In this document: positions 2,941-62,985 of the stretch, one piece after another | Position numbering within the stretch: the stretch's first letter is position 1 | Layout of the letters: each line of letters starts with the position of its first letter | Assembly (NCBI RefSeq): GCF_963921235.1 | Contig: NC_086107.1 | Location: 107,200,001-107,264,000 of the forward strand | DNA from: Mobula hypostoma | Taxonomy: Eukaryota | Direction of reading: 5' to 3' | Length of the DNA stretch: 64,000 nucleotides | Program-made: the position numbers and the translations under genes | The notes under the pieces: generated by a model | What the model saw: only the letters and a program-made list of their open reading frames with translations | What the model was told of the DNA's origin: nothing | Databases searched by the model: none

Positions 2941-3452
2941 AGTTTCACCTAGAGGGTGAAATTGGAATTCTCTAATTTGGAACTTGGAACTCTCTTTACA
3001 TAAGAGGGCTGTGAGAGCTCAATCACTGAATCTATTCAGGTCAGAGACTGATAAGAATTCTGAATAGGAAGGGAAGCAAGAGATTTAGGGTTTGTGCAAT
3101 AAACTGGTGCTGAAGTACAAGATCAAGTACTGTTGGTTGGAGCGGACACAAGGAGCTGAAGGGGTGGTCCTGCTTCTGTTCCCCACGCTCTTCACCAATT
3201 AATCTCAGTGAACTACCCTCCTTAACCAAACAGAAAGTTGCATCAGTCCAGCTTCTCCTACCAACTCCAGTAGTCACTTATGACCAACTAAATGCTTGAC
3301 GAGGGCCCAATCGTTACAAAATAGCAACCGAAATATCCAAACTGTGCACAGCAAGATCTCATGGACAACAATCTGGTCAGAACAGGGGTAGCCATTTAAG
3401 TGATGTTGACTGAGAAGCAATCATCCCTGCGTTTCTTTGAACCTTTTCTATT

Positions 3453-4202
3453 CAAATAAACTCTTCTCAGGCATCCGGCCGGGTACAGATATCAATTATA
3501 CCCAATGTTTTGATGACAGACTTTGCCATCTTCATCAGGGATGATGCCTGGGTATATCTAGTCCGGTGGTATTTATACCCCCATCGTCCGTCCCTCTGGA
3601 TTGGTTAGTCTTTATCCGATCAGATTTTCAGCTCTCTCACCTTGTTTACAATCAAATTCCAGTTCTTACTTGTCGTGAGACCTTGGTCATTGTTAAAATT
3701 CTTTTCCTCCAGTTTTATTTCAATGGCTTCCTTTACCAGGCAGTCCCAAAACCCACTGGCAGTAGCAGAACACTGCATTCACAATGGTCATAGGATTGAC
3801 TTCAACAGCACAAAACTACTCTGCTGCGCCAATGGCTTTTGGGACCGCCTGGTGAAGGAAGTCATTGAAATGAAACTAGAGGAAAAGAGCCTTAACAGAG
3901 ACAAAGGTCTTGCTCTTAGTAAGAATTGGAATTCAATTGTAAACAAGGTGGGAGAGCAGAAACCGGATTGGATGAGGGCTAACCAATCAGGAGGGACAGA
4001 CGATGGGGGTATAAACACCATCAGGATTAGACATGGCCAGGCATCATCCCTGATGAAGATGGCAGAGGTTGTCATCGAAACATTGTACACAGCTGGAAGC
4101 CCCAGAAGAGTTTATTCATCACATACGCCAGGAAAGCGTTAGAGCATTGTACACAGCTGGAAAGTGTTAGAGCATTGTACACAGCTGGAAAGCATTAGAT
4201 CA
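3453..4202 (+). mobile_element. Penelope-like element 3' end (GIY-YIG C-terminus) preceded by an inverted copy of itself
   Basis: ORF 3642..4142 contains AVAEHCIHNGHRIDF...RLVKEVIEMK...LNRDKG. Segment 3453-3756 is the reverse complement of about 3833-4120. Candidate TSD ttttctatt at 3444-3452 and 4203-4211. Confidence 0.85.
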
Positions 4203-4520
4203 TTTTCTATTATGCTACCACGCTGCTCTATAACCCTAGTCAAATCACAGGGTAATTTACAATGACCAATTAGCCTACGAACCAGTATATCTTTGGACTG
4301 TGGGAGGAAATCAGAGCACCCGGAGGAAACCCAGGCGGAAGAGTTGGAATTCAACCCGTGTCCACCACTCTCTTTGCTTCTTTATGTCATCCTTATCTCA
4401 CCCCCTACCACCCTCCAATTAAGTTTCTGAAGATTTGTTTCAATGTAGTTTTGCCTTTGTCGGCTGAACATTCGCAAGTCATCTTCTAGCTTTGACATTC
4501 CACCTCAGTGTTCAATGTAC

Positions 4521-5666: not shown

Positions 5667-6236
5667 AGCAACACACATCAAAGTTGCTGGTGAACGCAGC
5701 AGGCCAGGCAGCATCTCTAGGAAGAGGTGCAGTCGATGTTTCGGGCTGAGACCCTTCGTCAGGACTAACTGAAAGAACAGCTAGTAAGAGATTTGAAAGT
5801 AGGAGGGGGAGGGGAAGATCAAAAATGATAGGAGAAGACAGGAGGGGGAGGGATGGAGCCAAGAGCTAGACAGGTGATTGGCAAAAGGGATATGAGAGGA
5901 TCATGGGACAGGAGGCCCAGGGAGAAAGAAAAGGGGGGGGGGAAGCCCAGAGGATGGGCAAGGGGTATAGTGGGAGGGACAGAGTGAGAAAAAGGAGAGA
6001 GAGAAAAAGAATGTGTGTACAGTATATAAATAAATAACAGATGGGGTACGAGGGGGAGGTGGGGCATTAGCGGAAGTTAGAGAAGTCAATGTCCATGCTA
6101 TCAGGTTGGAGGCTACCTAGACGGAATATAAGGTGTTGTTCCTCCAACCTGAGTGTGGCTTCATCTTGACAGTAGAGGAGGCCGTGGATAGACATATCAG
6201 AATGGGAATGGGACGTGGAATTAAAATGTGCGGCCG
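5667..6236 (-). mobile_element. Penelope-like element 3' end: GIY-YIG tail plus purine/pyrimidine-skewed terminal repeat
   Basis: Minus ORF contains HFNSTSHSHSDMSIHGLLYCQDEATLRLEEQHLIFRLGSLQP (PLE endonuclease C-terminus). A hammerhead motif lies downstream. A short ctaat duplication flanks it. Confidence 0.85.
5730..5767 (-). ncRNA. Minimal type-I hammerhead ribozyme motif (helix III palindrome altered)
   Basis: Minus strand reads tagtc CTGACGA agggtctcagccc GAAAC ATC gactg. Confidence 0.6.
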
Positions 6237-8069
6237 CTAATGCTGTTTTCTGTTGCTTGTTGTGTTCTGTGACGTCCTGCCGAGCGACTGTGAATTTGCT
6301 CTGTTGTGTGGCGGCACCTGTCGGCTCTCCACTCCCCCTCCCGCACACTCTCGGGTGTGACGCTAATGATGCGCTTCACTGCAAGTTCCACAATACACAA
6401 ATAATCCTGAATCATAAACCTTGAACTTTGGTAGGTTAACTAGCCACTGTAATTTGTCCCTGGTGCAAATCTGTGGTGGAATCTGACCGGAATGTAGGGA
6501 GAATAAAATGGGCGCTCGATGGCTAGCATTGACCCGATGGATCGAATGGCCTGTTTCCATGCTGCATGACTCTGACTCAAACTCTTTTATCCAAACATTT
6601 GCAGAGCTGCCAACGTTCACCAGTTATTCTTTGTTAGGCATGACCTGTTTTCCAGAATCCATGTGGGGCTCTCAGTATTATTTTTATTCTTGCTAAGTAC
6701 TTCCGTTTCTAAACAGGCTCTGGTGTTCCTTCTACTCCAGTTGTCAGGTGGAGAGCCCAGAATACTTTGCTCTGATTGTTTTCGGGGTGCGCCGGTCAGG
6801 CAGCGCCCATTCCTGGCTGCTCTTTGAACCACCTCAAGAGTCCCGCAGCTCCCTAAGAGCTGGCTCAGCGATAAGCGGCCGAGGTACGCTCAGGTCAGGG
6901 TTTTTGCTTCTGACTGTAAGCTGCAGATGCCGGAATCCTGAAACAAAGAACAAACAGAAGTTGCAGAAAACTCGCAGCAGGTCAGGCAGCATCTGCGGAG
7001 AGAGGAACAAAGTTGATGTTCCAGCTTTAGATCCCTGTGACAGAACTGGGAAGAGGTTCTTGGCATAAATGGCCGGGGGGAAGGTGGGTACGGTGTGGTG
7101 TGTGTCGCCTTTGGAACTAAGCACCCACCTAGCTCATTAAGCATTTCTGACTTCCCACATGGAAGAGTCTTAGAATTTCACCCTTGGCCCTCATCAGTCA
7201 CTTCAGAACACATGGAACTGCATTAGAAACCTTTCATTCTCACCTCTGAGGGGTGGCCTAGAAGAAAGAACATCATCGTGGGATCATGGAACCTCTGTCA
7301 AGAACTCTACAGCCTCTGCGACTTGCCATAGAGTGCTGAGCTTCTGTGTTTCTCAAGCACCTGTATTTACTCATTGTTATCTTAACTGGAGTCATTAAGC
7401 CCCTGTGCTTTCTGTTTAATCTTGTCAAGTAAATTGTGACTGGCATGGGTTTCCTGCATAAGAGGGCTCCTGTTTAGTACCTTAGTGGGGCCATTGTGTT
7501 GGAGAGAATGAATTATCTTGTGGTGTCACTCAGTTGGTCCTCCGAGGCCCTGTTGGCATTCCTATGTCTAACCCCCTGTTTCCGTCTCTTCATGGGGAAT
7601 CTGCCATCCTCCGCTCCTGGGGTCGAGTCATTGTCAGCACTTCCCATGACTGACGCTGCCTTCCACCATACCCGGGTTGAGGCAGTGACGGCAATGGCTG
7701 TGACACAGAGAGTGCCTGCTGTTCCTCTGCACGTGGGTCCAGTCCTGCGAGCACACACCGTAACTGCTTTCAGGACTGAAGGAGGCTGCTTGGTCTTCCA
7801 TTCCTTGTATTTTTTTATCACCAGTCCTTTTACCAAAGGGAATGGTTTTTCACAAAGCCTTGCATTATCTCTATCAGGTCCTCCTCTCAGTTTTTTTTCC
7901 TTGCTCCAAGGAATTCTTCAGCCTCTCCTCACAACTGAAGCCCCACATCCCTGGTAACATGCTGATGAACTATCCCATGAAGGATACGTGGAGGCCATAC
8001 TTGTCCTAACTCCAACATGGCTGACCTCTCTTCTGTGTCAGTTCCCTCATCCTCAACTTCATATACCTG

Positions 8070-12375: not shown

Positions 12376-12739
12376 TCTACATATACGCAAGCCGGGACAG
12401 TGCAGTATGCAAAGCAAGCTCTTGCCCATGCAGCACGCTCTCCCCCTCTCCTCGCAGCCGATGAATCCAAAGGAACCGACCCTGAAGAGGTTTAAATCTT
12501 CTCCCTGGCGAGAGTTCGGTGAGACCCCCTCTGTGGCCTCCGCTGCTCTCTGCCCCTTCAACCATGTGCTCACGCTCTGGCATCTTCCTCCTTCCTCTCC
12601 AGTCCTGAAGAATCGTCCTGGCACGAAACATCCGCTATTTATTCTTTTCTATAGATGCCGCCTGACCTGCTGAGTTCCTCCAGCATTTTGTGTGTGTTAC
12701 CTTGGATTTCCAACATCTGCAGAATCTCTTGCGTTTGCC

Positions 12740-13912: not shown

Positions 13913-14037
13913 TTGTTGACCTTGTGTTGCTGGGTTTTTCGTGTGAGCATGTGGGAGTTGGATCTACTGGACGGAGCTGATGAGGGCCGATGGACTGAAT
14001 GGCCTCGACCGAAGTCATAGACCTTCTGTGATGCCGC

Positions 14038-14812
14038 AAACATGAGGAAATCTGCAGATGCTGGAAATTCAAGTAACACACATCAAAGTTGCTGGTGAAT
14101 GCAGCAGGCCAGGCAGCATCTATTGGAAGAGGTACAGTCGAAGTTTTGGGCTGAGACCCTTCGTCAGGACTAACTGAAGGAAGAGATAGTAAGAGATTTG
14201 AAAGTGGGAGGGGGAGGGGGAGATCTGAAATGATAGGAGAAGACAGGAGGGGGAGGGATGGAGCCAAGAGCTGGACAGTCGATTGGCAAAAGGGATATGA
14301 GAGGATCATGGGACAGGAGGCCCAGGGAGAAAGAAAGGGGGGGGGAAGCCCAGAGGATGGGCAAGGAGTATAGTGAGAGTTACAGAGGGAGAAAAAGGAG
14401 AGAGAGAAAAAGAATGTGTGTATATAAATAAATAATGGATGGAGGTATTTATTTATATACACACATTCTTTCTCTCACTCTCCTTTTTCTCCCTCTGTCC
14501 CTCTCACTATAGCCCTTGCCCATCCTCTGAGTTTTTCCCCCCACCCCCTTTCTTTCTCCCTGGGCCTCCTGTCCCATGATCCTCTCGTATCCCCTTTTGC
14601 CTATCACCTGTCCAGCTCTTGGCTCCATCCCTCCCCCTCCTGTCTTCTCCTATCATTTTGGATCTCCCCCTCCCCCTCCCACTTTCAAATCCCTTACTCA
14701 CTCTTCCTTCAGTTAGTTCTGACGAAGGGTCTCGACCCGAAACGTCGACTGTACCTCTTCCTAGAGATGCTGCCTGGCCTGCTGCGTTCACCAGCTATTT
14801 TGATGTGTGTTG
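14038..14812. mobile_element. Penelope-like terminal repeats inserted as an inverted pair
   Basis: About 14073-14440 and 14445-14812 are reverse complements. Perfect 15-bp TSD cttctgtgatgccgc at 14023-14037 and 14813-14827. Confidence 0.92.
14714..14751 (+). ncRNA. Minimal type-I hammerhead ribozyme, apparently intact
   Basis: tagtt CTGACGA a gggt-ctcg-accc GAAAC GTC^gactg. Core CUGANGA and GAAA are present, helix II forms, helix III is the ACGT palindrome, helix I is tagtt/gactg. Predicted cleavage after 14746. Confidence 0.75.
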
Positions 14813-15857
14813 CTTCTGTGATGCCGCCCAGTTCTCTGTTTCGCTAGTGTCAGCACTACAGAACTACACTTACTACTTTTGCATGATGTGCAGACTTTAT
14901 AATGCTGCTTCCTACACCTAGGGCGAGACTGTTACTAAGAATTAATAAAGGTGTATATTTCCTCATCCCACGCTGTTTTATAGTGTGTAATACTGACAGT
15001 GTACATATCCGGTATAGTATTAGCAATCTGTAATATTTACAGTGTATGCTATTCCTGATGTTTGGAGTTTACATCTCAGATTACTCACTGAAGCTTTCAC
15101 AGCCTGATTATGTGTTACATCTGATGTGCAAAAGTTGTAGATTACCTTGGTGTGCTGTCTTTCACCAGTGTTACAGGGACTTACAGACCGGCTCTGCTGA
15201 ATACAGTCTTCCCCTGGGTCTTTGGTTCAGTCATTCCCATTCCTATATCTTTCCCCAGTAGGATCCCAGAAGATCATAAGATATAGGAGTGGACTTAGGC
15301 CATTCGGCCCATCGTGGCTGCTCTGTCATTCTGTCATGGCTCATTCTTTTTTATATACCCCATTCGCCCCATAACCCTTAACCCTTAACCAAGCAAAATC
15401 CTATCAGTCTCTGCCTTAAATACACTCAATGACTTGTCCACCACAGCCCTCCGTGGAAACGAATTCCATCAATTCACCACCCCTCCTCATCTCATTTTTC
15501 AAGGGACATCTCTTCATTCTGAGGCTGTGCCCTCGGTTCCTGGACTGGCGTCTTGTGGGACGTGGTTGAAAGCCAGAACACCCGCGGGAAACTCTTGTGG
15601 AAAAGGGAGAGCGTGCAGGCTCCACACTGACAGCAGCAGAGGTCAGGAGCGAGCCTAGAACACGGGTGCTGTGAGGCCCTACCAGCTGTGCCACAGCGCC
15701 ATCTGGTACAGGGAGTAGGTTTGCAATTGCTTGGGAGTGTTCAAGGCTGTCTGAAGTGTGGTGAATCTGTGGAATTCATTGTCACTTGACTGTGGAAGCC
15801 TAGTCATTGGGTATATTTAAAGCGGAGGTTAATAGGTTCTTGATTAGAGCATCAAGA

Positions 15858-21394: not shown

Positions 21395-22340
21395 CAGGAT
21401 TCCCTACATTTATCTCACAGGTTGAGTCGGTAGTAAGGGAAGAAAGTGCAATGCTGGCATTGGAATATTGGACCACATTTGGAGTATTGTGAGCAATCCT
21501 GGGCCCCTTATCTAAGAAAGGATGTGCTGCCATTGGAGAGGGTCCAGAGGAAGTTCACAAGAATGACCCCAAAAATGAAAAGCTTGGTGTATGAGGAGAA
21601 TTTGATGGCTCTGGGCCTGTACTTGATGGAGTTTAGAAGAATGAGGGGGAAATCTCTTTGAAACCTATTAAATATTGAAAGGCTTAGATGGCGAGGACAT
21701 TGGGAGGATGTCTCCAGTAGTGGGAAGTTTAAGACAAGAGGGCACAGCCTCAGCATATAAGGACGTCCCTTTAGTGTCTCCAGTAGTGGAAAGTTTAAGA
21801 CAAGAGGGCACAGCCTCAGCATATAAGGACGTCCCTTTAGTGTCTCCAGTAGTGGAAAGTTTAAGACAAGAGGGCACAGCCTCAGCATATAAGGACGTCC
21901 CTTTAGAGCAGAGATGAGGATGAATTTCTTTAGCCAGAGGGTGATGAATCTGTGGAATTCATTGCCACAGTTGGCTGTGGAGGCCAAGTCATTATATAGA
22001 CAATAGACAATAGGTGCAGGACTAGGCCATTCAGCCCTTCGAGCCAGCACCGCCATTCACTGTGATCATGGCTGATCATCCACAATCAGTACCCTGTTCC
22101 TGCCTTCTCCCCATATCCCTTCACTCCGCTATCTTTAAGAGCTCTATCTAACTCTTTCTTGAAAGAATCCAGAGATTCCAATATATCCATTGTGTATATT
22201 TAAAGTGGAGGTTGATAGGTTCTTGACTAGTAAGAGTGTCAAAGGTTATGGGGTTGTGAAGGATAATGAATCAGCCATGTGGAGCAGACCCAATGGGCTG
22301 AATAATCTAATTAGCTCCTATGTCTTATAGACTTATGATC
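21395..22340 (+). mobile_element. CR1 LINE 3' fragment (with a nested inverted CR1 3' end at ~21996-22175)
   Basis: PHLEYCEQSWAPYLRKDVLPLERVQRKFTRM and CR1 3' UTR. Confidence 0.85.
21709..21906. repeat. 3 x 66-bp tandem repeat inside CR1
   Basis: Units start at 21709, 21775 and 21841. Units 2 and 3 are identical and unit 1 differs at one base. Confidence 0.95.
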
Positions 22341-23469
22341 TTTTAATTGCGCAGTTCTGATTTGGTCTTTTGTAGGCTTATTCTGTTCTTGTTCATTGTC
22401 AACCATCCTACACTTAATAAGTGATCTGATTTAGTTTTGGGATGTGAAGATTAAAACATATTTTTAATTAATGTGAGTCAAGAAAATATAATTCCAATTT
22501 AGAAACACACAGCAGGGAGCAATTGTGGATCTCAGCTGAAAGGTAGGGTGCATAAAGTGGGTCAGAGAGTGCAAGTGTAACTGAGAGTCATCTGCTTCGG
22601 AACTGGTTGTGGGCTTCAGAAAGGGTAAGATGAGGGAACACACCAGTCCTCATAGAGGGATCAGAAGTAGAAAGAGTGAGCAATTTCAAGTTCCTGGGTG
22701 TTAATATCTCTGAGGGTCTAACCTGGATCCAACATCTCGATGCAGTTACAAAGAAGGCACGATAGTGGCTGTATTCCATTATAGTTTGAGGAGATGTGAT
22801 ACGTCACCAAAGACACTCGCAAATTTCTACAGATGTACCGTGGGGAGGTACCTGGCTCCATCACTGTTTGGTATTGGGGGGGGGGTGGTGATGGTGGGGG
22901 GGCTTCTGCACAGGGTTGAAGAAAGCTGCAGAGAGTTGTAAACTTAGTCACCTCCATCATGGGCACTAGCCTCCATACTTTCCAGGACATCTTCAAGGAG
23001 TGATGCCTCACAATGGCAGCATCCATCATTAAGGACCCCCATCAGCCACGTCATGCCTTGTTCTCATTGCTACCATCAGGGAGGAGGTACAGAAGCCTGA
23101 AGGCACACACTCAGTGATTCAGGAACAGCTTCTTCCCTTCTGCCATCCGATTTCTGAATGGACATTGAGCCCATGAACTCGACCTTAATACTTCTTTATT
23201 TCTATTTTTGCACTATTTATTCTATTTTAACTATTTAATACACATACAGTGGCGTGCAAAAGTTTGGGCACCCTGGTCAAAATTTCTGTTACTGTGAATA
23301 GCTAAGCGAGTAAAAGTTGAACTGATTTCCAAAAGGCATAAAGTTAAAGATGACACATTTCTTTAATATTTTAAGCAAGAAAACTTTTTTATTTCCGTCT
23401 TTTACAGTTTCAAAATAACAAAAAAGGAAGAGGGCCTGAAGCAAAAGTTTGGGCACCCTGCATGGCAGT

Positions 23470-23965
23470 ACTTAGTAACACCTCCTCTGGCAAGTATCAC
23501 AGCTTGTAAACACTTTTTGTAGCCAGCTAAGAGTCTTTTAGTTCTTGTTTGGGGGATTTTTGCCCATTCTTCCTCACAAAAGGCTTCTAGTTCTGTGAGA
23601 TTCTTGGGCCGTCTTCCATGCACTGCTCTTCTGAGGTCTATCCACAGATTTTTGATGGTGTTTAGGTCGGGGGACTGTGAGGGCCATGGCAAAACCTTCA
23701 GCTTGCACCTCTTGAGGTAGTCCATTGTGGATTTTGAGGTGTGTTTAGGATCATTATCCTGTTGTAGAAGCCATCCTCTTTTCATCTTCAGCTTTTTTAC
23801 AGATGGTGTGATGTTTGCTTCCAGAATTTGCTGGTATTTAATTGAATTCATTCTTCCCTCTACCAGTGAAATGTTCCCCGTGCCACTGGCTGCAACACAA
23901 GCCCAGAGCGTGATCGATCCACCCCCTTTTTTCTCCAAACATACCTTTGCTCATTGCGACCAAAA
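23470..23965 (-). pseudogene. Tc1 transposase catalytic C-terminal half (left arm)
   Basis: GGSITLWAC...WLLQQDNDPKHTSK...WPSQSPDLNTIKNLW...AVILARGGVTKY. No N-terminal DNA-binding domain. Confidence 0.9.
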
Positions 23966-23974
23966 TTCAGCGTC

Positions 23975-24570
23975 AGTAGTTTGCAAGGGAACATCTAAAC
24001 ATCTAAACAAGCCTGATGAATTTTGGAAACAAGTCATGTGGACTGATGAAGTTAAAATAGAACTTTTTGGCCGCAATGAGCAAAAAAGGGTGCAGAATTT
24101 CATGAAAAGAACACCTCTCCAACTGTTAAGCACGGGGGCTTTGGGCTTATGTTGCAGCCAGTGGCACGGGGAACATTTACTGGTAGAGGGAAGAATGAAT
24201 TCAATTAAATACCAGCAAATTCTGGAAGCAAACATTACACCATCTGTAAAAAAGCTGAAGATGAAAAGAGGATGGCTTCTACAACAGGATAATGATCCTA
24301 AACGCACCTCAAAATCCACAATGGACTACCTCAAGGGGCGCAAGCTGTAAGTTTTGTCATGTCCCTCACAGTCTCCCGATCTAAACATCATCAAGAATCT
24401 GTGGATAGACCTCAAAAGAGCAGTGCATGAAAGACGGCCCAGAACTAGAAGCCTTTTGCAGGGAAGAATGGGGGAAAATCCCCCAAACAAGAATTGAAAG
24501 ACTCTTAGCTGGCTACAAAAAATGTTTACAAGCTGTGATACTTGCCAGAGGGGGTGTTACTAAGGACTGA
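23975..24570 (+). pseudogene. Tc1 transposase catalytic C-terminal half (right arm)
   Basis: HLNKPDEFWKQVMWTDEVKIELFG...QQDNDPKRTSK, broken by frameshifts and a stop. Confidence 0.9.
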
Positions 24571-33800: not shown

Positions 33801-36800
33801 GATCAAAACAAAATCAATGGCTGCTCTACCATGAGCACCCAGTCCACTTTTGGCTGCAGCTATGGCAAAACCAACCCCTGATACTAGCTGCAGTGGAAAA
33901 CCACCTCCATGGACTTCATCGAACTCCTACCATTACTAACGTGACTCAGTAAAAGTATTTAATCCTACTGCTCTTTGTCATACTTGTTCCATGCATACAT
34001 AACATTTATGACCCAGGAGACCATTTTAGTCCATTGAATCTATGCTAGTTCAAAGAACAATGTTATTCGAATCCTATTCTCGTTATTCCTTTTTCTTTGC
34101 AGTACTAATATTTGTAACTTACAGATTTTTATATGTAAACAGCAAATTTCACATTGTATGTCAGTGATAGTAAACCTGAGTCTGATGCTAATCCTTCCTG
34201 TAGAGTCACCGAGACATATAACATGGGAACAGGCCCTTCAGTCCATCAAATTTGTACTGACCCTCAACCATCCATTTACACCAAATACACTTTAATTCTA
34301 CATTATAATCAATCAACTATCTCTCTCCCACACACCCCCCCCCACCACCAGCAAGGGGTAGCACTGTACTGTAGTAATTAGCGTAACGTTTTACAGCGCT
34401 GGCTGTAAGATGGCGGTTTAATTCCTGCTGCTGCTGTCTGTAAGGAGTTTGTACGTGCTCTCCATGGCCGTGAGCTCCAGCTTCTGCCCATATTCCAAAG
34501 ACAGGCAGGTTAGGATTAGTGTGCCATGGGCATGATGTGTTGGCACTGGGAGCGTGGCGACACTTGCGGGGCTGCACAACACAACCCTCGCTGGTTCGAT
34601 TTAACACAAATGATACCTGTCACCGCGTGATTCGAATGTACATGTGGCAAATAAGGCTAATAGCTCTTGTTGTTCAGATTCCACCAGTCAACAACACAGA
34701 ATTTACCATGGCCGACGAGCCTGCCAGTTTTCGGGATGCGGGAGGAAACTGGAGCACCAGGAGGGAACCCATATGGTCACAGGGAGAACGTGCAAACCCC
34801 ACTGGAAGTCAGGACTGATCACAGGAGCTGGAGCTGGGGCTGGGGGGACAGATTCTCTGTGCCATCCCAAGTGAAAGATGGCTTAGCAGGGGCTGGAGTC
34901 GCAAAATGCCCTTCTGGCTATTAGACTTGCTACTCTACCGGCATATGACCACCAGGCTCATAGACCTGTCCATCCTTGTACCTTAAGACCAAAATCCATT
35001 AAGACATAGGAGCAGAATTAGACTATTCAATCTATCAAGCCTGCTCTACCATTCCACCATGGCTGATTTATTATCCCTCTCAACCCCGTACCCATGCCTT
35101 ATCCCCATTACATTTGATGCCCTTGCTAATCACAAACCATCAACCTCTGCTTTAAATATATCCGATGACTTGCCTCCACAGCCAATCTGTGGCAATAAGT
35201 TCCATAGATTCACCGACCACTGGCTAATAAAGAAATTCCTCCTCATCTCTGTTCCAAAGGAAAATCCTTGTATTTATTTATTTATTTGTTTGTTTGTTTG
35301 TTTGTTGTATATATTTATTGAGATACAGTGCAGAATAGGCCCTTCCAGCCCTTTCAGCCACGGCACCCAGCAATCCCCTAATTTAACCCTAGTTTAATCA
35401 CAGTACAATTTACAATGACCGATCATCCTACCAACTAGTACGTCTTTCAGGAAACCAGAGCACCCGGAAGAAACCCATGCGGCCAAGGGGAGAACGTACA
35501 AACTTCTTATAGACAGTGGGGGGGTGGTTATCCTTCTATTCTGAGGGTGTTCCCTCCAGTCCTGGACTCCCCTTACTATAGGAAACACCTTCTCAACATT
35601 CACTCTATCGAGACCTTCCAACATTCGATAGGTTTCACTGAGGTCACCCCTCATTCTTCTGAATTCCAGGGAGTAGAGACCCGGAGCCATCAAACGCTCC
35701 TCAGATGACAAGCCCTTTTTCATTCCTGGGATCATTTTTGTCATCTTCCTTTTGAACTCTTTCCAATCTCCTTTCTTAGATAAGAGGCCGGAAACTGCTT
35801 GGAATCCTCCAAGTGTGGTCTGACCAATGCCTTATAAAGCCTCATCTTTCTGTGTTTTCTGCGTTACCAGAAGCGAAGTAAATTAAACTATAATAGATCA
35901 ATAACAGCCTGATGCCTGTTCAATAATCTCCTCTCTAGATTACCCAATAATGTTACATGAGGCATGAATTGGCAAAGCTATGTAAAAATTCAATGCTCTG
36001 TTCTGTTTTCAGTATTGTTACCATGGTTCCGTGGGCAGTATTCTCACCTTGGAGTGAGCTGCCTCTGCGCTCCAGAAATTCCAGACCTGCTACTCCCAGC
36101 AACCAACGTTCAGCCCGGGATGCTGACTTTCAGACTGACGAACCGATCGCTCCTCAGCATTGAAAGATGCCTGCCTCCATTCCCATGTTCTCTCTGGGGT
36201 CCTCCACGGTGTTTATCTCTTGGAAAACATCATTAAAACACTCAGCTTATTGGAATAGCTGATGGGTTCTGGCCGTGTTCAGATAGGCTATTGCATTTCC
36301 TACTCTAGAGCACGGTAGTGTTGTGGTTAGTGCAATGCTTTTACTGTGCCAGCGACCTGGGTTCAATTCCTGTCGCTGTCTATAAGGAGTTAGTGCGTTC
36401 TCCCTGTGACCATGTGGGTTTTCTCCCAGTGCTCCGGTTTCCTCCCACATTCCGAAGACGTGCGGGTTAGTAGGTTACTTGGGCAGCACAGGCTCGTTGG
36501 GAGGATAGGCCTGTTACTGTGCTGTATCTCTGAATAAAATTTTTGTAAAACTACTTTGATAATAACGTCAACTGGTGGCGTAGTGACATCAGTGCCGGAC
36601 TTCGGAGTGAAAGCTCCCAAGTTCGAATCCAGCCGGCTCCCTTGCATGCTTTCCATCCGTGCTGGGTTGTGCGTCGAGCTAGCAACCCGGCCTCGTAAAA
36701 ATAAGAAAGCCTGGCGTCCCAATGACTCCACTCGGAGTTAAGGGCTTTCTTCTTCTTCTTTGATAATAAGCTGTCCATGAATTGATTTGAGACTGGGTGA

Positions 36801-36896
36801 GATCATGAAAGATGCCACATTTATTTGTTAATTTTGCGATACAGTGCAGAACAGGCCCCTTCCAGTCATACAAGCTGCACCAACCAGCAACCCAGG

Positions 36897-37449
36897 CGAC
36901 ACACACAAAATGCTGGAGGAACTCAGCAGGTCAGGTAGCTTCTAGGGAAAAGAGTGAACAGTCGACGTTTCAGGCTGAGAGCCTTCTTCAGGACTGGAGA
37001 AGAAAAGATGAGGAGTCAGGGTTAGGAGGGGGAGGGGAGGAAGAAACACAGGGTGAAAGGTGAAACTGGGATGGGGGGAGGGGTGAAGGAAAGAGCTGGG
37101 AAGTTGATTGGTGAAAGAGAGACAGGGCAGGAGAAGGGGGAATCTAACAGGAGAGGACAGAAGGATATGGAAGAAAGAAAAAGGGGGAGGAGCACCGGAG
37201 GGAGGTGAAGAGTGGGCAAGGAGGTAAGGTGAGAGAGGGAAAAGGGGATGGGGAATAGAAAAGGAGTGGGAGGACCACTACCAGAAGTTTGAGAAATCGA
37301 TGTTCATGCCATTAGGTAGGAGGCTACCCAGATGGAATATAACGTGTTGCTCCTCCAACCTGTGTGTGGCCTCATCACAGCAGTACAGAAGGCCATGTTG
37401 GAATAGAAATGGGAAGTGGAATTAAAATGGGTGAGCACTGGGAGATCCT
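36897..37449 (-). mobile_element. Penelope-like element 3' end inserted into a V-SINE
   Basis: Same family as 5667-6236. 10-bp TSD ccagcaaccc at 36884-36893 and 37451-37460. The split V-SINE halves lie on either side. Confidence 0.88.
36959..36996 (-). ncRNA. Minimal type-I hammerhead ribozyme, apparently intact
   Basis: Minus strand reads cagtc CTGAAGA aggct-ctc-agcct GAAAC GTC^gactg, with perfect 5-bp helix I, 5-bp helix II and a GUC triplet. Confidence 0.78.
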
Positions 37450-37765
37450 CCCAGCAACCCCCCTACTTAACACCTAGCTTAATGGAAGGGTAATTTACAA
37501 TGACTGATTAACCTACCAACTGGCTCGCCTTTGGGGTGTGGGAGGAAACCAGAGCACCCAGAGGAAACCCACGCAGTCGCAGTACAGACGGAGCCGGAAT
37601 TGAACCCTGCACTGTGAAACGCCCTGAGCTGTAACAGCGTCATATCAACCGTCATGCTACGGTGGTACCCGAAGTACTCTTTTAGGAAAAGTTTGGATAA
37701 GTATACGAATGGGAGGGGTATGGTCCGGGTACCGATCCATGGGACTAGGCAGAATAATAGTTCAT

Positions 37766-49454: not shown

Positions 49455-52340
49455 TCAAACCCTGCCTCCCATATAAGCCTCCAACTTAGATTCCTCCATA
49501 TACCTGTCTAGTAGTCTCTTAAACTTCACTATTGTATCTGCCTCCACCACTGACTCAGGCAGTGCATTCCACGCACCAACCACTCTCTGAGTAAAAAACC
49601 TTCCTCTAATATCCCCCTTGAACTTCCCACCCCTTACCTTAAAGCCACGTCCTCTTGTATTGAGCAGTGGTGCCCTGGGGAAGAGGCGCTGGCTATCCAC
49701 TCTATCTATTCCTCTTATTATCTTGTACACCTCTATCATGTCTCCTCTCATCCTCCTTCTCTCCAAAGAGTAAAGCCCTAGCTCCCTTAATCTCTGATCA
49801 TAATGCATACTTTCTAAACCAGGCAGCACCCTGGTAAATCTCCTCTGTACCCTTTCCAATGCTTCCACATCCTTCCTATAGTGAGGTGACCAGAACTGGA
49901 CACAGTACTCCAAGTGTGGCCTAACCAGAGTTTTATAAAGCTGCATCATTACCTCGCAACTCTTAAACTCTATCCCTCGACTTATGAAAGCTAACACCCC
50001 ATAAGCTTTCTTAACTACCCTATCCACCTGTGAGGAAACTTTCAGGGATCTGTGGACATGTACCCCGAGATCCCTCTGCTCCTCCACACTACCAAGTATC
50101 CTGCCATTTACTTTGTACTCTGCCTTGGAGTTTGTCCTTCCAAAGTGTACTACCTCACACTTCTCCGGGTTGAACTCCATCTGCCACTTCTCAGCCCACT
50201 TCTGCATCCTATCAATGACTCTCTGCAATCTTTGACAATCTTCTACACTATCTACAACACCACCGACCTTTGTGTCGTCTGCAAACTTGCCAGCCCACCC
50301 TCCTACCCCCCACATCCAGGTCGTTAATAAAAATCACGAAAAGTAGAGGTCCCAGAGCAGATCCTTGTGGGACACCACTAGTCACAATCCTCCAATCTGA
50401 ATGTACTCCCTCCACCATCACCCTCTGCCTTCTGCAGGCAAGCCAATTCTGAATCTACCTGGCCAAACTTCCCTGGATCCCATGCCTTCTAACTTTCTGA
50501 ATAAGCCTACCGTGTGGAACCTTGTCAAATGCCTTAATAAAATCCATACAGATCACATCCACTGCACTACCCTCATCTATATGCCTGGTCACCTCCTCAA
50601 AGAACTCTATCAGGCTTGTTAGACACGATCTGCCCTTCATAAAGCCATGCTGACTGTCCCTGATCAGACCATGATTCTCTAAATGCCTATAGATCCTATC
50701 TCTAAGAATCTTTTCCAACAGCTTTCCCACCACAGACGTAAGGCTCACTGGTCTATAATTACCCGGACAATCCCTACTACCTTTTTTGAACAAGTGAACA
50801 ACATTCGCCTCCCTCCAGTCCTCCGGTACCATTCCCGTGGACAACGAGGGCATAAAGATCCTAGCCAGAGGCTCAGCAATCTCTTCTCTCGCCTCGTGGA
50901 GCAGCCTGGGGAATATTCCGTCAGGCCCCGGGGACTTATCTGTCCTAATGTATTTTAACAACTCCAACACCTCCTCTCCAATATCAACGTGCTTCAGAAC
51001 ATCAACCTCGCTCATATTGTCCTCACCATCATCAAGTTCCCTCTCATTGGTGAATACCAAAGAGAAGTATTCATTGAGGACCTCGCTCACTTCCACAGTC
51101 TCCAGGCATATCTTCCCACCTTTATCTCTAATCGGTCGTACCTTCACTCCTGTCATCCTTTTTTTCTTCACATAATTGAAGAATGCCTTGGGGTTTTCCT
51201 TTACCCTACTCGCCAAGGCCTTCTCATGCCCCCTTCTTGCTCTTCTCAGCCCCTTCTTAAGCTCCTTTCTTGCTTCCCTATATTCCTCAATAGACCCATC
51301 TGATCCTTGCTTCCTAAACCTCATGTATGCTGCCTTCTTCCACCTGACTAGATTTTCCACCTCACTTGTCACCCATGGTTCCTTCACCCTACCATTCTTT
51401 ATCTTCCTCACCGGGACAAATTTATCCCTTACATCCCGCAAGAGATCTCTAAACATCGACCACATGTCCATAGTACATTTCCCTGCAAAAGCATCATCCC
51501 AATTCACACCCGCAAGTTCTAGCCTTATAGCCTCATAATTTGCCTTTCCCCAATTAAAAATTTTCCTGTCCTCTTTGATTCTATCCTTTTCCATGATAAT
51601 TATAAAGGCCAGGGAGCAGTGGTCACTGTTCCCCAGATGCTCACCCACTGAGAGATCTGTGACCTGACCCGGTTCATTACCTAGTACTAGATCTAGTATG
51701 GCATTCCCCCTGGTCAGCCTGTCCACATACTGTGACAGGAATCCATCCTGGACACACTTAACAAATTCTGCCCCATCTAAACCCAACTAATCAGGTGCCA
51801 ATCAATATTAGGGAAGTTAAAGTCACCCATGATAACAACCCTGTTATTTTTGTACCTTTCCAAAATCTGCCTCCCAATCTGCTCCTCTGTATCTCTGCTG
51901 CTACCAGGGGGCCTATAGAATACCCCCAGTAGAAGAACTGCTCCCTTCCTGTTCCTGACTTCCACCCATATTGACTCAAAAGAGGATCCTGCTACATTAC
52001 CCACCCTTTCTGTAGCTGTAATAGTATCCCTGACCAGTAATGCCACCCTTCCTCCCCTTTTTCCTCCCTCTCTATCCCTTTTAAGGCACTAAAATCCAGG
52101 AATATTGAGAATCCATTCCTGCCCTGGTGCCAGCCAAGTCTCTGTAATGGCCACTACATCATAATTCCATGTATGTATCCAAGCTCTCAGTTCATCACCT
52201 TTGTTCCTGATGCTTCTTGCATTGAGGTACACACATTTCAGCCCTTCTACCTTACTGTCTTTACACCATTTATTCTGCTTCTCTTTCCTCAAAGCCTCTC
52301 TGTATGTTAGATCTGGCTTTACTCCATACACTTCTTTCAC
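49455..52340 (-). pseudogene. CR1 ORF2 APE endonuclease-reverse transcriptase, disrupted
   Basis: YLNARSIRNK, ITETWL, YRPP, MGDFN, SDH, KSPGPDGI, YRPVSLTS, QHGF, KAFDKVPH, GVPQGS, FADD. Broken by stops near 52089 and 50455 and frameshifts near 51785 and 50300. Confidence 0.96.
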
Positions 52341-52375
52341 TGCTCTATCACTCTGGGTCCCATCCCCCTCGCAAA

Positions 52376-53080
52376 TTAGTTTAAACCCTCCCGAACCATG
52401 CTAGCAAACCTACCTGCAAGGATATTGCTCCCCCTCGAGTTCAGGTGCAACCCATCCAATCTGTACAGGTCCCACCTTCCCCAGGAGAGATCCCAATGAT
52501 CTAAAAATCTAAAACCCTGCTCCCCGCACCAACTCCTCAGCCACGCATTCAACTGCCATCTCCTCCAATTCTTACCATCTCTGTCATGTAGCGCTGGCAG
52601 CAATCCTGAGAACGTCACCCTTGAGGTCCTGTTCTTCAGCCTTCTGCCTAGTTCCCGAAACTCACACTTCAGGACCTCATCCCTCTTCCTGCCTATGTCG
52701 TTGGTCCCAACATGTATCACGACTTCTGGTTGCTTTCCCTCTCGTACCAGGATATCGTGCACCCGGTCAGAGATACCCCGGACCCTGGCACCCAGGAGGC
52801 AACAAACCATGCGGGTGTCCTTCTCACGTCCACAAAATCTCCTGTCTGCTCCCCTGACTATAGAGTCTCCAATGATGACAGCTCTCCTCTTCTCCGTCCC
52901 ACCCTTCTGCACCACAGGGTCAGACTCAGTGCTGGAGGCCCTGCCCCCATGGCTCACACCTGGTTGGTCGTCCCCGCCAACAGTATCCAGGTCGGTAAAC
53001 TTATTATTCAGGGGAATGGCTACAGGGGTGCTCTGTAGTACCTGTCTGCTCACCTTCGCTTTCCCGCCTCTGACTGTCAC
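52376..53080 (-). pseudogene. CR1 ORF1p C-terminal SGNH/GDSL esterase domain
   Basis: VIIGDSIVR (block I), GA (block II), HVGTND (block III), DGLHLN (block V). The frame is open but the N-terminus is missing. Confidence 0.92.
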
Positions 53081-53629
53081 CCAACGACCTGCTTCCGACA
53101 GCCTAGGTCCAGATTCCTTACGCGGTCTTCCAGATCGCCCATATGGAATGTAGATTGAATTTAAAATGCAACTCAGAACAATGGTCTCCCTGGAGCTGCA
53201 GACTGGGGTCGATTAAGAATGAGGAAACACCCATTCATGTGAAATGTCTGCATATGCATGAATGCAGTTCAGAAACAGAGGTGATTAACACTCATTTTGG
53301 GCGTCTTGGTGTGAAGATCTGGATGTTTGAAATCATGTGCAACTCAAAGGAAGTATTATGAATGCTTTGTAACTGAAGAAATTGTTCTGTTGTTACCTTT
53401 GTTTATTGACCTATAAAATGTGATGTAATATTGGGTCAGGGAGCCTCTTCTCCCAAGAGTGTCTCCAGTATGACACTCTTGATAAGCAGAAAAAAGACTT
53501 TTATATCACCAGCTTCCGTGCCTCCTGATACTTCGGTTGCAATCAGAACATTGTCAATCATCTGTTCATGAATTTGAATGGTCTAAAGTGAAAATAAAAC
53601 AGCTATTTCAGCCCACCGACGAAAAATTT

Positions 53630-55266: not shown

Positions 55267-56303
55267 AGACACAAGAGATTCTGCACATGCAACACACACT
55301 AAATGCTGGAGAAACTCGGCAAATCAGGCAGCACCTAAGGACAGGAATAAAGTGTCAACACTTCAGGCCAAGACCCTTCATCAGGACTGGAAAGGATGGG
55401 GGCAGAAGCCAGGATAAGAAGTTGGGCGAGTGGGAAGAGCACAAAATGGCAGGTGTTAGGTGAAACCAGGTGAGGAGAAGGGTGGGTGAATGGGGGAGGG
55501 GTGCTGAAGATAGTAACTAGGAGATGATGGGCGAAGAGGTAAAGGGCTGAAGAAGAAGGAATCTGATAGAAGAGGAGAGTGGACCATGGGAGAAAGGGAA
55601 AGAGGACACAAAGCAAAGACGGGAGCAATGAGCAAGTGGGGAGAAGAGAAGGGGTAAGGGGGGAGAACCAGGATGGGGAATGGAAAAAGAGATAAGGAGG
55701 AAGGGGAAGAAATCACCGGAAGTTAGAGAAATGATGCCCATGCCTCAACTGTCACAACCACGGAGTCTGGGCACCCTCGCAGGCGGGCAGCTGAATGGGA
55801 TTGACAATCACATTCCAGCCAGTTAGTGTTTCCTCGTGGTGGTATTTGACTCCCTTCCTCTCGTTTCAGTCTTGTCGAGACCTGACCGAAACACAGTGGC
55901 GTCAATGCGTCCTGCTCGCCTTTGTCCTTGTTCTGGGAGAGAAGACAACCGTTTAGGTTGACACTGTAATGGAGCAAATTTACTTAGTATTAAGTTACTG
56001 CCTTGAGCCACAATGTCGCCATTAGCTTTCAGTCTTGTTAGCCTAGTGCTTATTATTTTCCTTTTGCTCTGCACAATTCTTATTCCAATTCTGAGAACTC
56101 TTCAATCCGCTTCAGTGTCTGCCCCTCTGCCCTTGGGCCATTACCCTCACAGCCGTGTTAACCGGGTTGGAGGCTACCCGGACAGAATACGAAGTGTTGC
56201 TCCTCCAACTTGAGACTGGCCTCATTGTGGCATTAGAGGAGGCCACGGACAGGCACGTCGGCGTGGGAGCGGCAAGTCGAATTGAAGAGGCTGGTCACCA
56301 GGT
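55267..56303 (-). mobile_element. Penelope-like element 3' end split by a ~410-bp insertion
   Basis: The family sequence breaks at catgcc (55744) and resumes gggttggaggctacc (56164). Mutated hammerhead at 55352-55389. Confidence 0.8.
55750..56160. mobile_element. Candidate solo LTR
   Basis: Discrete insert starting TGTCAC. The right end (gtgtctgc...ttggg...ccgtgtta) resembles a Gypsy LTR end but lacks a clean CA and TSD. Confidence 0.4.
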
Positions 56304-56619
56304 GATTTTCCCCTTTTGCAGCAGACACAGATGCTGCCTGCCCTGCTGAGTTCCCGTAGCATTTTGTGTGCGTTGCTTAGTTTCCAAAGCTGTCTGACGG
56401 CACAGCTACACAAGCAAGTGAGTAAGCAGACACTGACGGCAGTGTGGAGTTGGTTACCTGGAACTGAGCTGCTTCCAAAAAGAGAGAGAAATGGAGGTTG
56501 GGTGGGTGATTGGGAGAGAATACCTCTCTCCGTTCCTGTCATTCTGTTTTCTCTGCTGGGGCACCGGCTACTAGTCTAGATTTGGTTACCACTGGTTACC
56601 GTTCACCAAACTCTCAATG

Positions 56620-57022
56620 TAACACACACAAAACGCTGGAGGAACTCAGCAGGCTAGGCAGAATCTATGGAAAAGTGTAAACAGTTGACTTTTCGGGCTG
56701 AAACCCTCCTTCAGGACTGGAAGGGAAGGGAAGAAGTCAGAGTATGAAGGTGGGGGGAGGGAAGGAAGAAGTACGAGGTGGCAGGTAATAGGTGAAACTG
56801 GGAGAGGTGGGGGGTGAAGTAAAGAGCTGGGAAAATGATTGGTAGAAAGGCTGGAAAAGGGGGGATCTGATAGGGGAGGATGGAAGACCGTGGAAGAAAG
56901 GGAAGGGGGGAGAGCACCAGGGAGAGGTGATGGGCAGGTAAGGAGATAAGGTGTGAGAGAGCAAAGGGGGAATGGTAAAGGGGTGGGGCAATTACGGGAA
57001 GTTCAAGAAATCACTGCTCTCA
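56620..57022 (-). mobile_element. Penelope-like terminal repeat
   Basis: aacacacacaaaacgctggaggaactcagc start. Mutated hammerhead at 56682-56719. Confidence 0.82.
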
Positions 57023-60836: not shown

Positions 60837-62559
60837 TAGCTATCAAAATGGTCAGTAGTTCTGGTCTCAGACTAGAACCATTGACTATGTTCCGCTGCCC
60901 TTCCTGCGTGACCTCCCACACAGGTGTAATGTCGAGAGTATTGGTATTGGTTTATCATTGACACATGCAAGATACAGTGAAAAGCTTGTCTTGCATCCTG
61001 TTGATACAGGTCAGATCATTACACAGTGCAGTAGGGTAAGACAAAGTAAAACAATAGCATAGTGGCTAGTGTAACACTATTACAGTGCCAGTGAACCAGG
61101 TTCAGTTCTGCTGCTCTCTGTAAGGAGTTTATTTGTTCAAAGGTTCAAAGTACTTTTATTATCAAAGAATGTATAAATTATACACCTTGAAATTTGTCTG
61201 CTTACAGGCAGCCACAAAGCAAGAAACCCCGAAAGAACCCAATTAAAAAGAAGACTAACACCCAATACGCAGAGAGAAAAAGGAACAATCATGCAAACAA
61301 TAAAGCAAGCAACAGCATTCAGGACAAAACTGAGTCTATAGACACGAAGGTTGGAGCAGCCAGGGTTGGCCCAGAGTCTCAGTTCAACACACAGCAGGGC
61401 AAATCGCGGACACTAAATCCGGAACAGCCGCCTCGCCTCGGGTCCTGACACCCTGCATTTTCAGTCCATCTGGCCTGGTGTTTACATTGTCTAATGCGAT
61501 ACGCTCTGGGCCCCACGTTGCAGCCTGTTCTCAACCTTTCCAAATCAGATGGATCCAACCTCACACCCGGTTGAGATGGACAGACTCCGAAACAACTCCG
61601 CTGTCGTTCATCTTCAGTATCTTAAACCGTGGTGATCCGGCTTCCACCCACATTTTAAAGACATACAGGTTAGAAGGTTAATTCGAAGTTCAAAGTTCAG
61701 AGTAAATTTTATTAACAAACTACATATATGTCACCATGTACAACCCTGAGATTCATTTTCTTGTGGGCATACTCAGCAAATCTATAGATTAGTAACCATA
61801 ACAGAATCAATGAAAGAACGCCCAATTAGGGCATTCAAGCAGAGTGCAGAAGACAACAAACTGCGCAAATGGAAATATAAATAAACAACCAATAAGCATT
61901 GAGAACATGAGATGAAGAGTCCTGGAAAGTGAGTCCATTGGTTCTCCATATGGGTGCAATGGGCTCATTGCACTGCAAAAATCTGTTACCATGTTGTATC
62001 ACTAAATAAATATATTTTTAAAATTGCAGAATAAATTGTAAAAGCTACAGAGAAAGTGCAGTGCAGGTAAACCATAAAGTGCAAGATCATAACGAGATAT
62101 ATTGTGAGATCAAGAGTCTATTTATCAAACTAGGGAACCATTTAATAGTCTTATTTAAGTTCATAAATGCTTGTGTTGTAGGTGCACCTTATTATTTATT
62201 AATTTAATAGTGCAATATCACTTTATGTGTTATGTGTGTGAGTTATATGTACTGTGTTGAACACTTTGCTCCAGAGGAACATTGTTTCGTTTGGCGGTAC
62301 ACATGTATACAGTTGAATGACAATAAACTGATCTTGGACTTGAACTTGAGGGTAGAATTTGTCTTTGAGCTTGGTCATGAGTCCATCTTATCTTACAAGA
62401 GGTCCATTCGAGGGTCTGATGACAACAGAATAGAGGTTTTTGGATTTGGACACAGAAACAATGAAAGAATAGTATTTCCAAGTCAGGACTGTGTGCGATT
62501 TGACAGTGGTGTTTCCCTCTGCCTGACGGTGAAGGTCACAGGGTTGGGAAGTTCTGAAC

Positions 62560-62700
62560 GCAAGAGATTCTACAGATGTTGGAAATCCAGAGCGACACAC
62601 ACACACACACAAAATGCTGGAGGAACTCTGCAGGTCAGGCAGCATCTATGGAGGGAAATAAACAGACGACGTTTCAGGCTGAGACCCTTCATCGGGACTG
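62560..62700 (-). mobile_element. Penelope-like terminal repeat, short
   Basis: Family 3' end. Hammerhead at 62663-62700 has CCGATGA in place of CTGATGA. Confidence 0.8.
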
Positions 62701-62985
62701 TCTGGTTTGGTAACTGCAATGCATTTTGGAAACAGTGTAAAGTATCTGATGCAGTGATGGCAGAAGAAGAAATGAAAAGTGAAGGTACTGATGGGGTGTT
62801 CATGAGGCATGTTGCTTCACCTTTGACGATTTTGTGAGTTTTGTGGGAGTATCTAACTTCAGATAAAAAGTGCTTGGGCATTAGTTGGTGAATCACTAGC
62901 CACAGGACCCTGAACTTCTAACCTGACCTTGTAGCTGAACCAGTTGAGTTTCCAGTCAATAGTGACTTCACTGATGCTGATGGCA

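Follow-up and report, generated by a model that had tools for sequence, protein, structure and literature searches.

A minimal hammerhead motif within a head-to-head Penelope-like insertion of the ray Mobula hypostoma

Anatomy of the motif and of the insertion that carries it

The DNA under study, referred to as the window, is a stretch of 64,000 nucleotides from Mobula hypostoma. Located at positions 14714-14751 of its plus strand is a minimal type I hammerhead, recognized by its core pattern and pairing geometry and with a predicted cut after C17 (14746). The conserved core is complete at 14 of 14 positions, including CUGANGA, GAAA, and NUH, which bears out the claim of an earlier, sequence-only reading that a hammerhead with all core parts and an ACGT helix III lies here. 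C3 and G12 correspond to 14719 and 14739, respectively. Helix I is formed by 14714-14718 and 14747-14751 and contains five base pairs, two of which are U-G wobbles. The CUGACGA segment (14719-14725) is followed by a single extra A at 14726, positioned between A9 and 10.1. Helix II, built from 14727-14730 and 14735-14738, consists of four base pairs with G10.1-C11.1 as the closing pair and a CUCG loop. GAAAC and GUC extend from 14739 to 14743 and from 14744 to 14746, and helix III is a bare ACGU (14742-14745), palindromic from 15.2 to 16.2 and without loop 3. Two changes are private to this copy in that the contigs of the family have a C at 14718 (97.5% of the depth) and a G at 14735 (96.4%). 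Both preserve a base pair.

The motif is embedded in a structure that extends from 14038 to 14812 and is bounded by a 15-bp target-site duplication (TSD) at 14023-14037 and 14813-14827 of the plus strand. This 15-mer has no third occurrence on either strand of the window. The left arm (14038-14442, minus strand), as defined by its alignment to the right arm, is the 5'-truncated 3' end, with a long tail, of what is most likely a Neptune element (see below). The right arm (14446-14812, plus strand) contains a pyrimidine-rich 3' region, the minimal hammerhead, and a short tail. The two arms are identical in 337 of 373 columns, with the 3' end of the left arm being 33-36 nt longer. The left arm carries a hammerhead of its own at 14135-14172 (minus strand), the core of which is dead (G12A, G16.2U), and the C3-to-C3 distance between the opposite-strand motifs is 552 bp. 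The motif at 14135 had previously been listed as a related motif; it is in fact part of this insertion, in the arm inverted relative to that of the focal motif. At the head-to-head junction (14421-14459) there are TATA-like words at 14421 (plus strand) and 14459 (minus strand), each aimed into the other arm, and the region is a putative promoter. The arms and the TSD together make of 14038-14812 one inverted insertion.

According to the available text of two reports (PMC8557442, PMC3846280), Penelope-like elements (PLEs) give rise to inverted, 5'-truncated copies with TSDs and a one-sided tail of 30-40 bp, and a two-way TATA word at a PLE inverted junction has been described. The 5' truncation, the inverted copy, the TSD, and the one-sided tail are all present at 14038-14812. 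The junction of the right arm with its flank is spanned by one contig of the DNA run X1 (14772-15100) with zero differences, and in run X5, which has a different organism label, a single contig links 14 bases of the element to the same right flank. There is accordingly a weak hint that the insertion predates the split of the X1 and X5 lineages.

Family identity

A sibling copy at 5667-6240 (minus strand), for which no convincing TSD was found, closes an open reading frame with the final 56 codons of a GIY-YIG endonuclease (6070-6237). Its hammerhead, at 5730, contains the change G16.2A. C3 of this copy is located on the same strand as the endonuclease end, 305 nt past the GIY-YIG stop, and is then followed by the tail, an arrangement that corresponds to the pseudo-LTR (pLTR) and supports the sense orientation originally proposed for the motif.

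In a protein search with the endonuclease end, the best 8 of 20 matches were from rays (Mobula, Hypanus, Rhinoraja, and Hemitrygon) with identities of 71-89%. The long ray relatives, 80-89% identical over the window piece, display a C-X4-CxxC linker and then a C-terminal GIY-YIG domain. The GIY-YIG scores of these relatives fall slightly below the Pfam cut-off, and the window's own endonuclease piece gave no Pfam match. Judging by the linker and the GIY-YIG domain of its close relatives, the family most likely belongs to the Neptune clade. Neptune EN+ PLEs, as presented in the available portion of PMC8557442, likewise have a C-terminal GIY-YIG domain with a CCHH motif and a CX2-5CxxC linker (seen here in the close relatives), and they share the 5' truncation, the inverted copy, and the one-sided tail of 30-40 bp. 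The difference is that the present family is known from the window as 3' ends only. Indeed, no reverse transcriptase sequence of the family was observed within the 64-kb window, in agreement with the initial description of a very abundant PLE family whose copies here are mostly without it. On the basis of sequence and location, the motif at 14714 is assigned as a metazoan minimal hammerhead of a PLE in the pLTR position.

Comparison with known minimal hammerheads

Within the window the core pattern has two matches (14719 on the plus strand and 36991 on the minus strand) versus 0.03 in shuffles, and none of 100 shuffles reached two. Other candidates at 36135, 58814, and 60118 (plus strand) and at 36157, 10419, 7921, and 7197 (minus strand) were rejected as being without the GAAAC-NUH geometry. 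An Rfam scan of the window gave nothing at gathering score, and there was no hammerhead among the 49 matches between 14000 and 15000 down to an E-value of 10. Rfam microRNA matches at 14360-14520 were discounted in that they reflect the long inverted repeat. The folding z-score of the motif is not significant. In the nine window copies, 86.4% of the helix cells are paired versus 43% or less in slid controls, and the covariation, with a single two-sided change in these few related copies, is not above that of shuffles.

A scan of metagenomes with the core pattern yielded at least 123 matches at no fewer than 122 loci, with at least 101 being distinct and at least 99 having full flanks. Helix I lies outside of the search pattern. 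Among the 99 listed metagenome motifs, which are not 99 independent cases because they come from related families, it averages 2.74 pairs versus 0.88 for shuffled partners, and the largest mean in 2000 partner shuffles was 1.26. All four Watson-Crick types occur at the first two helix I pairs of the listed motifs. The pairing of helix I clearly appears to be real for this motif class. In one metagenome contig (L076, 401-501) two minimal hammerhead matches on opposite strands overlap back to back. A search for the tail pattern of the ray family in contigs of metagenomes, viruses, and genomes was without a match.

There is next to no likelihood that the resemblance to a hammerhead is due to chance. 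The missing Rfam match, the folding z-score, and the covariation at shuffle level in the nine window copies would be in keeping with such an explanation, but the number of core-pattern matches, a location as expected for a PLE, and the helix I pairing among the 99 listed metagenome motifs all speak against it.

Minimal hammerheads are known from the pLTRs of metazoan PLEs, and in the available text of that report (Cervera and de la Pena 2014, PMC4209133) they have in common with the ray motif the type I layout, the lack of loop 3, the palindromic 15.2-16.2 segment, the extra base after A9, the G10.1-C11.1 pair, a helix I of 4-5 bp, and their occurrence mainly as solo copies with opposite-strand pairs 100-700 bp apart (552 bp here). 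In fish they are found in Neptune, Poseidon, and Xena elements; cartilaginous fish are absent from the taxa named in that portion of the text. Helix II is 4 bp in length here versus 7-8 bp in the Schistosoma examples (PMC4209133, available text).

Family copies in the window and their decay

A profile constructed from eight window copies revealed nine complete motifs and four remnants, or 13 pieces, that span ~3.9 kb (6% of the window); an extra match with an E-value of 0.48 was disregarded. All seven of the related motifs and all three of the remnants (near 190, 37845, and 48925) noted in the sequence-only reading were recovered, along with two further pieces at 6973-7051 (minus strand) and 56326-56387 (plus strand).

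The whole core is retained in only two of the nine complete motifs, namely that at 14714 and that at 36959-36996. The latter belongs to an older-subfamily copy with an endonuclease end (36896-37450, minus strand). Lesions in the others, apart from those already given, are U4C in a short copy at 62557-62714 (minus strand, motif 62663), A9G and C15.2A in the copy at 56615-57012 (minus strand, motif 56682), and A15.1G, C15.2U, and C17U in that at 55270-55606 (minus strand, motif 55352). The same-strand motif nearest to the focal copy, at 12600, lies 2.1 kb upstream in the copy at 12575-12737 (plus strand) and displays G16.2A and a broken helix II. The motif at 7000 is the most decayed of the nine. 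The family shows two 3' ends, the first of which is the end point of 14714, 5730, 36959, and 56682. The longer tail is reached by 14135, 12600, 62663, and 7000, and the copy with motif 55352 is deleted between the two ends.

Changed cells amount to 10 of 112 (8.9%) in the core versus 45 of 367 (12.3%) in the tail (p = 0.40), a comparison of low power that employed eight copies from two subfamilies with 7000 excluded. Seven of the ten core changes are at CpG positions, and five are CpG transitions. This low-power test of eight copies detected no better conservation in the core relative to the tail, and the pattern appears to fit neutral decay. Note that helix II of the motif at 36959-36996 (minus strand) is predicted to form in a shifted register, with 5 bp that make use of the extra A and leave a core without the inserted base. 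A U at 11.1 accounts for 45% of the family depth.

Abundance and the nature of the mobile unit

For the depth analysis, 4 of 24 listed sequencing runs were aligned to 14446-15100. In the DNA run X1, with 105,575 contigs, depth sums to 5-15 million across the motif and tail versus 11 across the flank. The motif/flank ratio is ~5 x 10^5, or 1.6 x 10^4 when each overlapping 31-mer is counted separately, values of depth that do not equal copy number. The abundance picture is similar in run X5. As a rough range, the family copies number 10^4-10^5 or more. The density in the window (13 pieces per 64 kb) suggests far more than the 4,000-9,000 copies of coelacanth and Xenopus that were obtained with a stricter descriptor (PMC4209133, available text). 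The proposal of a very large genome-wide ribozyme load stands with respect to the abundance of the family, but a motif load is not a ribozyme load, and the latter was overstated because seven of the nine complete motifs have core lesions.

A retrozyme-like, non-autonomous family had also been suggested. In the accessible part of a preprint (10.64898/2026.07.22.740005), non-LTR retrozymes are defined as tandem units with at least two consecutive ones carrying a complete hammerhead; like the present copies they are derived from pLTRs, contain a type I hammerhead, and encode no protein. Theirs are tandem units, whereas none were found in the window. The motif occurs in 0 of 12 rows of a tandem-repeat search of the window, and within it there is no same-strand pair of motifs with both intact. 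The retrozyme is unsupported here because tandem units were not found. With 3' ends that are fixed at two points, 5' ends that vary, inverted arms, and TSDs, the window copies show the pattern of truncated PLE insertions. It is quite improbable that the family is a true non-LTR retrozyme, the tandem monomers of which would be excised and circularized via paired hammerheads. PLE-pLTR-derived arrays have been reported, including one chondrichthyan case (same preprint, accessible part), and the DNA runs contain a few short backward contig joints near the motif. Against these stand the tandem-repeat search, the missing pair of intact same-strand motifs, and copies that are inverted and TSD-flanked.

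The non-autonomous part of the suggestion fares better. The three longest of the 13 pieces begin at 6240, 37450, and 56316, within ~20 nt of one another and at about residues 311-316 of the protein P0002, and none is longer. This shared start leaves room for a pLTR-sized unit of ~590 nt, extending from the endonuclease end to the tail, that would be transcribed from solo copies and mobilized in trans, such that many copies would derive from a short RNA instead of a full-length one that had been truncated. Such a unit seems unlikely, though not implausible. It is favored by the common start, by the lack of family reverse transcriptase sequence in the window, and by the average of 363 bp for pLTR-derived units in one chondrichthyan (10.64898/2026.07.22.740005, accessible part). 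It is disfavored by the fact that just three copies share the start, the other ten 5' ends being scattered over the last 500 nt, and by the strong 5' truncation that is usual in PLEs as far as the available literature goes.

Mechanism and activity

In minimal hammerheads without loop 3, helix III cannot close in the monomer, and the available text of PMC4209133 reports no cleavage for monomers and weak cleavage for dimers. Eight of nine Xenopus dimers were without any cleavage (10.64898/2026.07.22.740005, accessible part). The anole Poseidon element PAc (Frangieh 2024, PMC11167929, in the text available) also has two 3' ends one tail-length apart downstream of a minimal hammerhead. PAc is of another clade, and its cleavage is protein-assisted, whereas the ray family is known from sequence. 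The PAc hammerhead requires the element's protein and is dispensable for insertion in vitro, no RNA-seq ends map to its cut site, and the tail is explained by two adjacent reverse-transcription starts (PMC11167929, same text).

By analogy with these PLEs, the hammerhead of the parent ray element most likely would have acted on a long tandem precursor RNA and cut it after C17, be it as a double hammerhead paired via ACGU or with the help of the element's protein, and the partner motif would have been supplied by tandem pLTRs. At 14714 there is no intact same-strand partner within the window. The motif is very probably an idle relic, that is to say, the minimal hammerhead of a Neptune pLTR in a dead, 5'-truncated, head-to-head insertion, and it would be a passenger that by chance has not yet been hit by mutation. 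This reading draws on the anatomy, the TSD, the arms, the family, and the decay pattern described above; we infer the inactivity of the locus, as we do the mode of action of the parent.

In the isolated 38-mer, helix II pairing is predicted at 0.85-1.0. The addition of 14 native bases upstream lowers the predicted pairing of both helix I and helix II to at most 0.02 because of a competing hairpin at 14706-14728 (plus strand), which in the predicted fold of the focal copy occupies CUGACGAAGG. A general inhibitory-stem switch upstream of the core was rejected: the value of the 14714 copy was reached by 6 of 200 shuffles and those of seven other copies by 26-191 of 200, and among 97 listed metagenome motifs the stem is likewise no general trait (0.178 versus 0.168). 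A read-through RNA of both arms is predicted to form a hairpin of ~370 bp with an energy of -685.6 kcal/mol (z = -43). According to the modeled folds, an RNA begun at the junction TATA would be without the antisense arm and would escape the long hairpin, though not the short one. Under nearest-neighbor folding, which omits Mg2+ and the core and tertiary contacts, the predicted energies are -11.9 kcal/mol for the active dimer, -32.1 kcal/mol for a non-catalytic duplex, and -22.0 kcal/mol for two monomers.

The cut site is bridged by family-copy contigs from RNA-labeled runs, the label being a guess, such that uncut family molecules exist provided that those runs are RNA. A rise in RNA/DNA depth from 14710 was rejected as a sign of cleavage or of a start site, given that other subfamilies align there in DNA as well; contigs can neither rank parts of the element nor show RNA ends. 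The unique flank at 14820-15100 has zero cover in two RNA-labeled runs, which is uninformative with regard to expression.

It might be argued that the 14714 copy is active in trans, in which case either a host transcript or a sense RNA started by the junction promoter would pair via ACGU with an intact copy elsewhere and be cut. The intact core, the TATA-like word ~25 nt ahead of the arm, and the presence of family sequence in two runs presumed from their label to be RNA are in line with this, but the active dimer is predicted to be less stable than both the non-catalytic duplex and two monomers, and in the available literature dimers are weak, most of the Xenopus ones remain uncleaved, and the anole element lacks RNA-seq ends at the cut site. 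Activity in trans is thus considered highly unlikely, and the idle relic is preferred.

Editing and splicing of family RNA

Over 14446-14815, and among the positions listed, A>G places (at least 4%) make up 15/56 and 16/55 in the RNA-labeled runs versus 3/52 and 3/55 in DNA (p = 0.002-0.004); the RNA label of these runs (X16 and X17) is a guess, and they come from one study with samples that differ from those of the DNA. T>C places number 10 in each of the four runs, again among the positions listed. At 14763, in a UAG context, G accounts for 13.6-14.3% in the RNA-labeled runs versus 2.2-3.8% in DNA. The five-fold excess of A>G places, with no T>C excess, suggests that family RNA of the sense strand probably undergoes A-to-I editing. 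Editing of Penelope sequences has been reported for lizard and Xenopus (PMC5625713, PMC10636886, each in the portion available).

The 5' strand of helix I contains a pyrimidine tract and YAG in nine of nine aligned copies, with the tract absent in 62663, and as a lead it may hold a candidate splice acceptor. A GT is found at the ORF stop in older copies, and the young 5730 copy is without it. In an annotated isoform of stingray VKORC1L1, the endonuclease end is directly joined to host sequence at what is presumably an exon boundary. Ray gene models fused to the family's endonuclease end include ATP synthase C3, neuromedin-U receptor 1, VKORC1L1, and ABHD14A (P0003, P0007, P0008, and P0020), which suggests that this end may be exonized frequently in rays. 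In the Drosophila virilis Penelope hammerhead an intron ends at helix I (PMC4209133, available text), whereas the acceptor here is a candidate by sequence.

Significance

A minimal hammerhead in a PLE is of a well-known kind, and the new part is its occurrence in a ray; no description of such a motif in rays or sharks was found in the literature, as judged by titles and abstract openings. As it stands, the extension of a known PLE feature to a ray genome is of little consequence. The role in vivo of PLE hammerheads is still open in the available text of PMC8557442 and PMC11167929, and an abundant vertebrate family in which naturally occurring G12A copies can serve as controls for intact ones offers high-power material for tests of cleavage, dimer dependence, and editing. 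It is a long shot, but the ray Neptune end might be Alu-like, with copies that number in the tens or even hundreds of thousands and are in part ~590-nt pLTR-only units, with head-to-head insertions serving as two-way sense promoters, and with RNAs that pair via ACGU in trans and cut transcripts. CpG decay, A-to-I editing, and the splice acceptor in helix I could keep such a scheme under control.

Other features of the window

Two additional head-to-head arrangements were observed. The insertion at 3444-4211, which belongs to a different PLE family that may be Poseidon-like, has arms that are 78% alike with a center near 3790. It contains two decayed minimal hammerheads, with C3 at 4050 (plus strand) and near 3538 (minus strand), the latter with G12A, and it has a one-sided tail and a 28-nt tandem (4131-4204). 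A likely 9-bp TSD lies at 3444 and 4203, the 9-mer occurring five times in the window. In the arrangement at 56164-56387, an endonuclease-end piece (minus strand) meets a short tail piece (plus strand) near 56326.

No host gene was recognized among the 24 window open reading frames of at least 150 amino acids, and the rest of the window is rich in repeats. The long LINE-like reading frames at 49455-53212 (minus strand) are assumed to be CR1-like. An inverted pair of transposase pieces, presumably Tc1-like, is located at 23402-24350, and a 66-bp triple tandem extends from 21709 to 21906.
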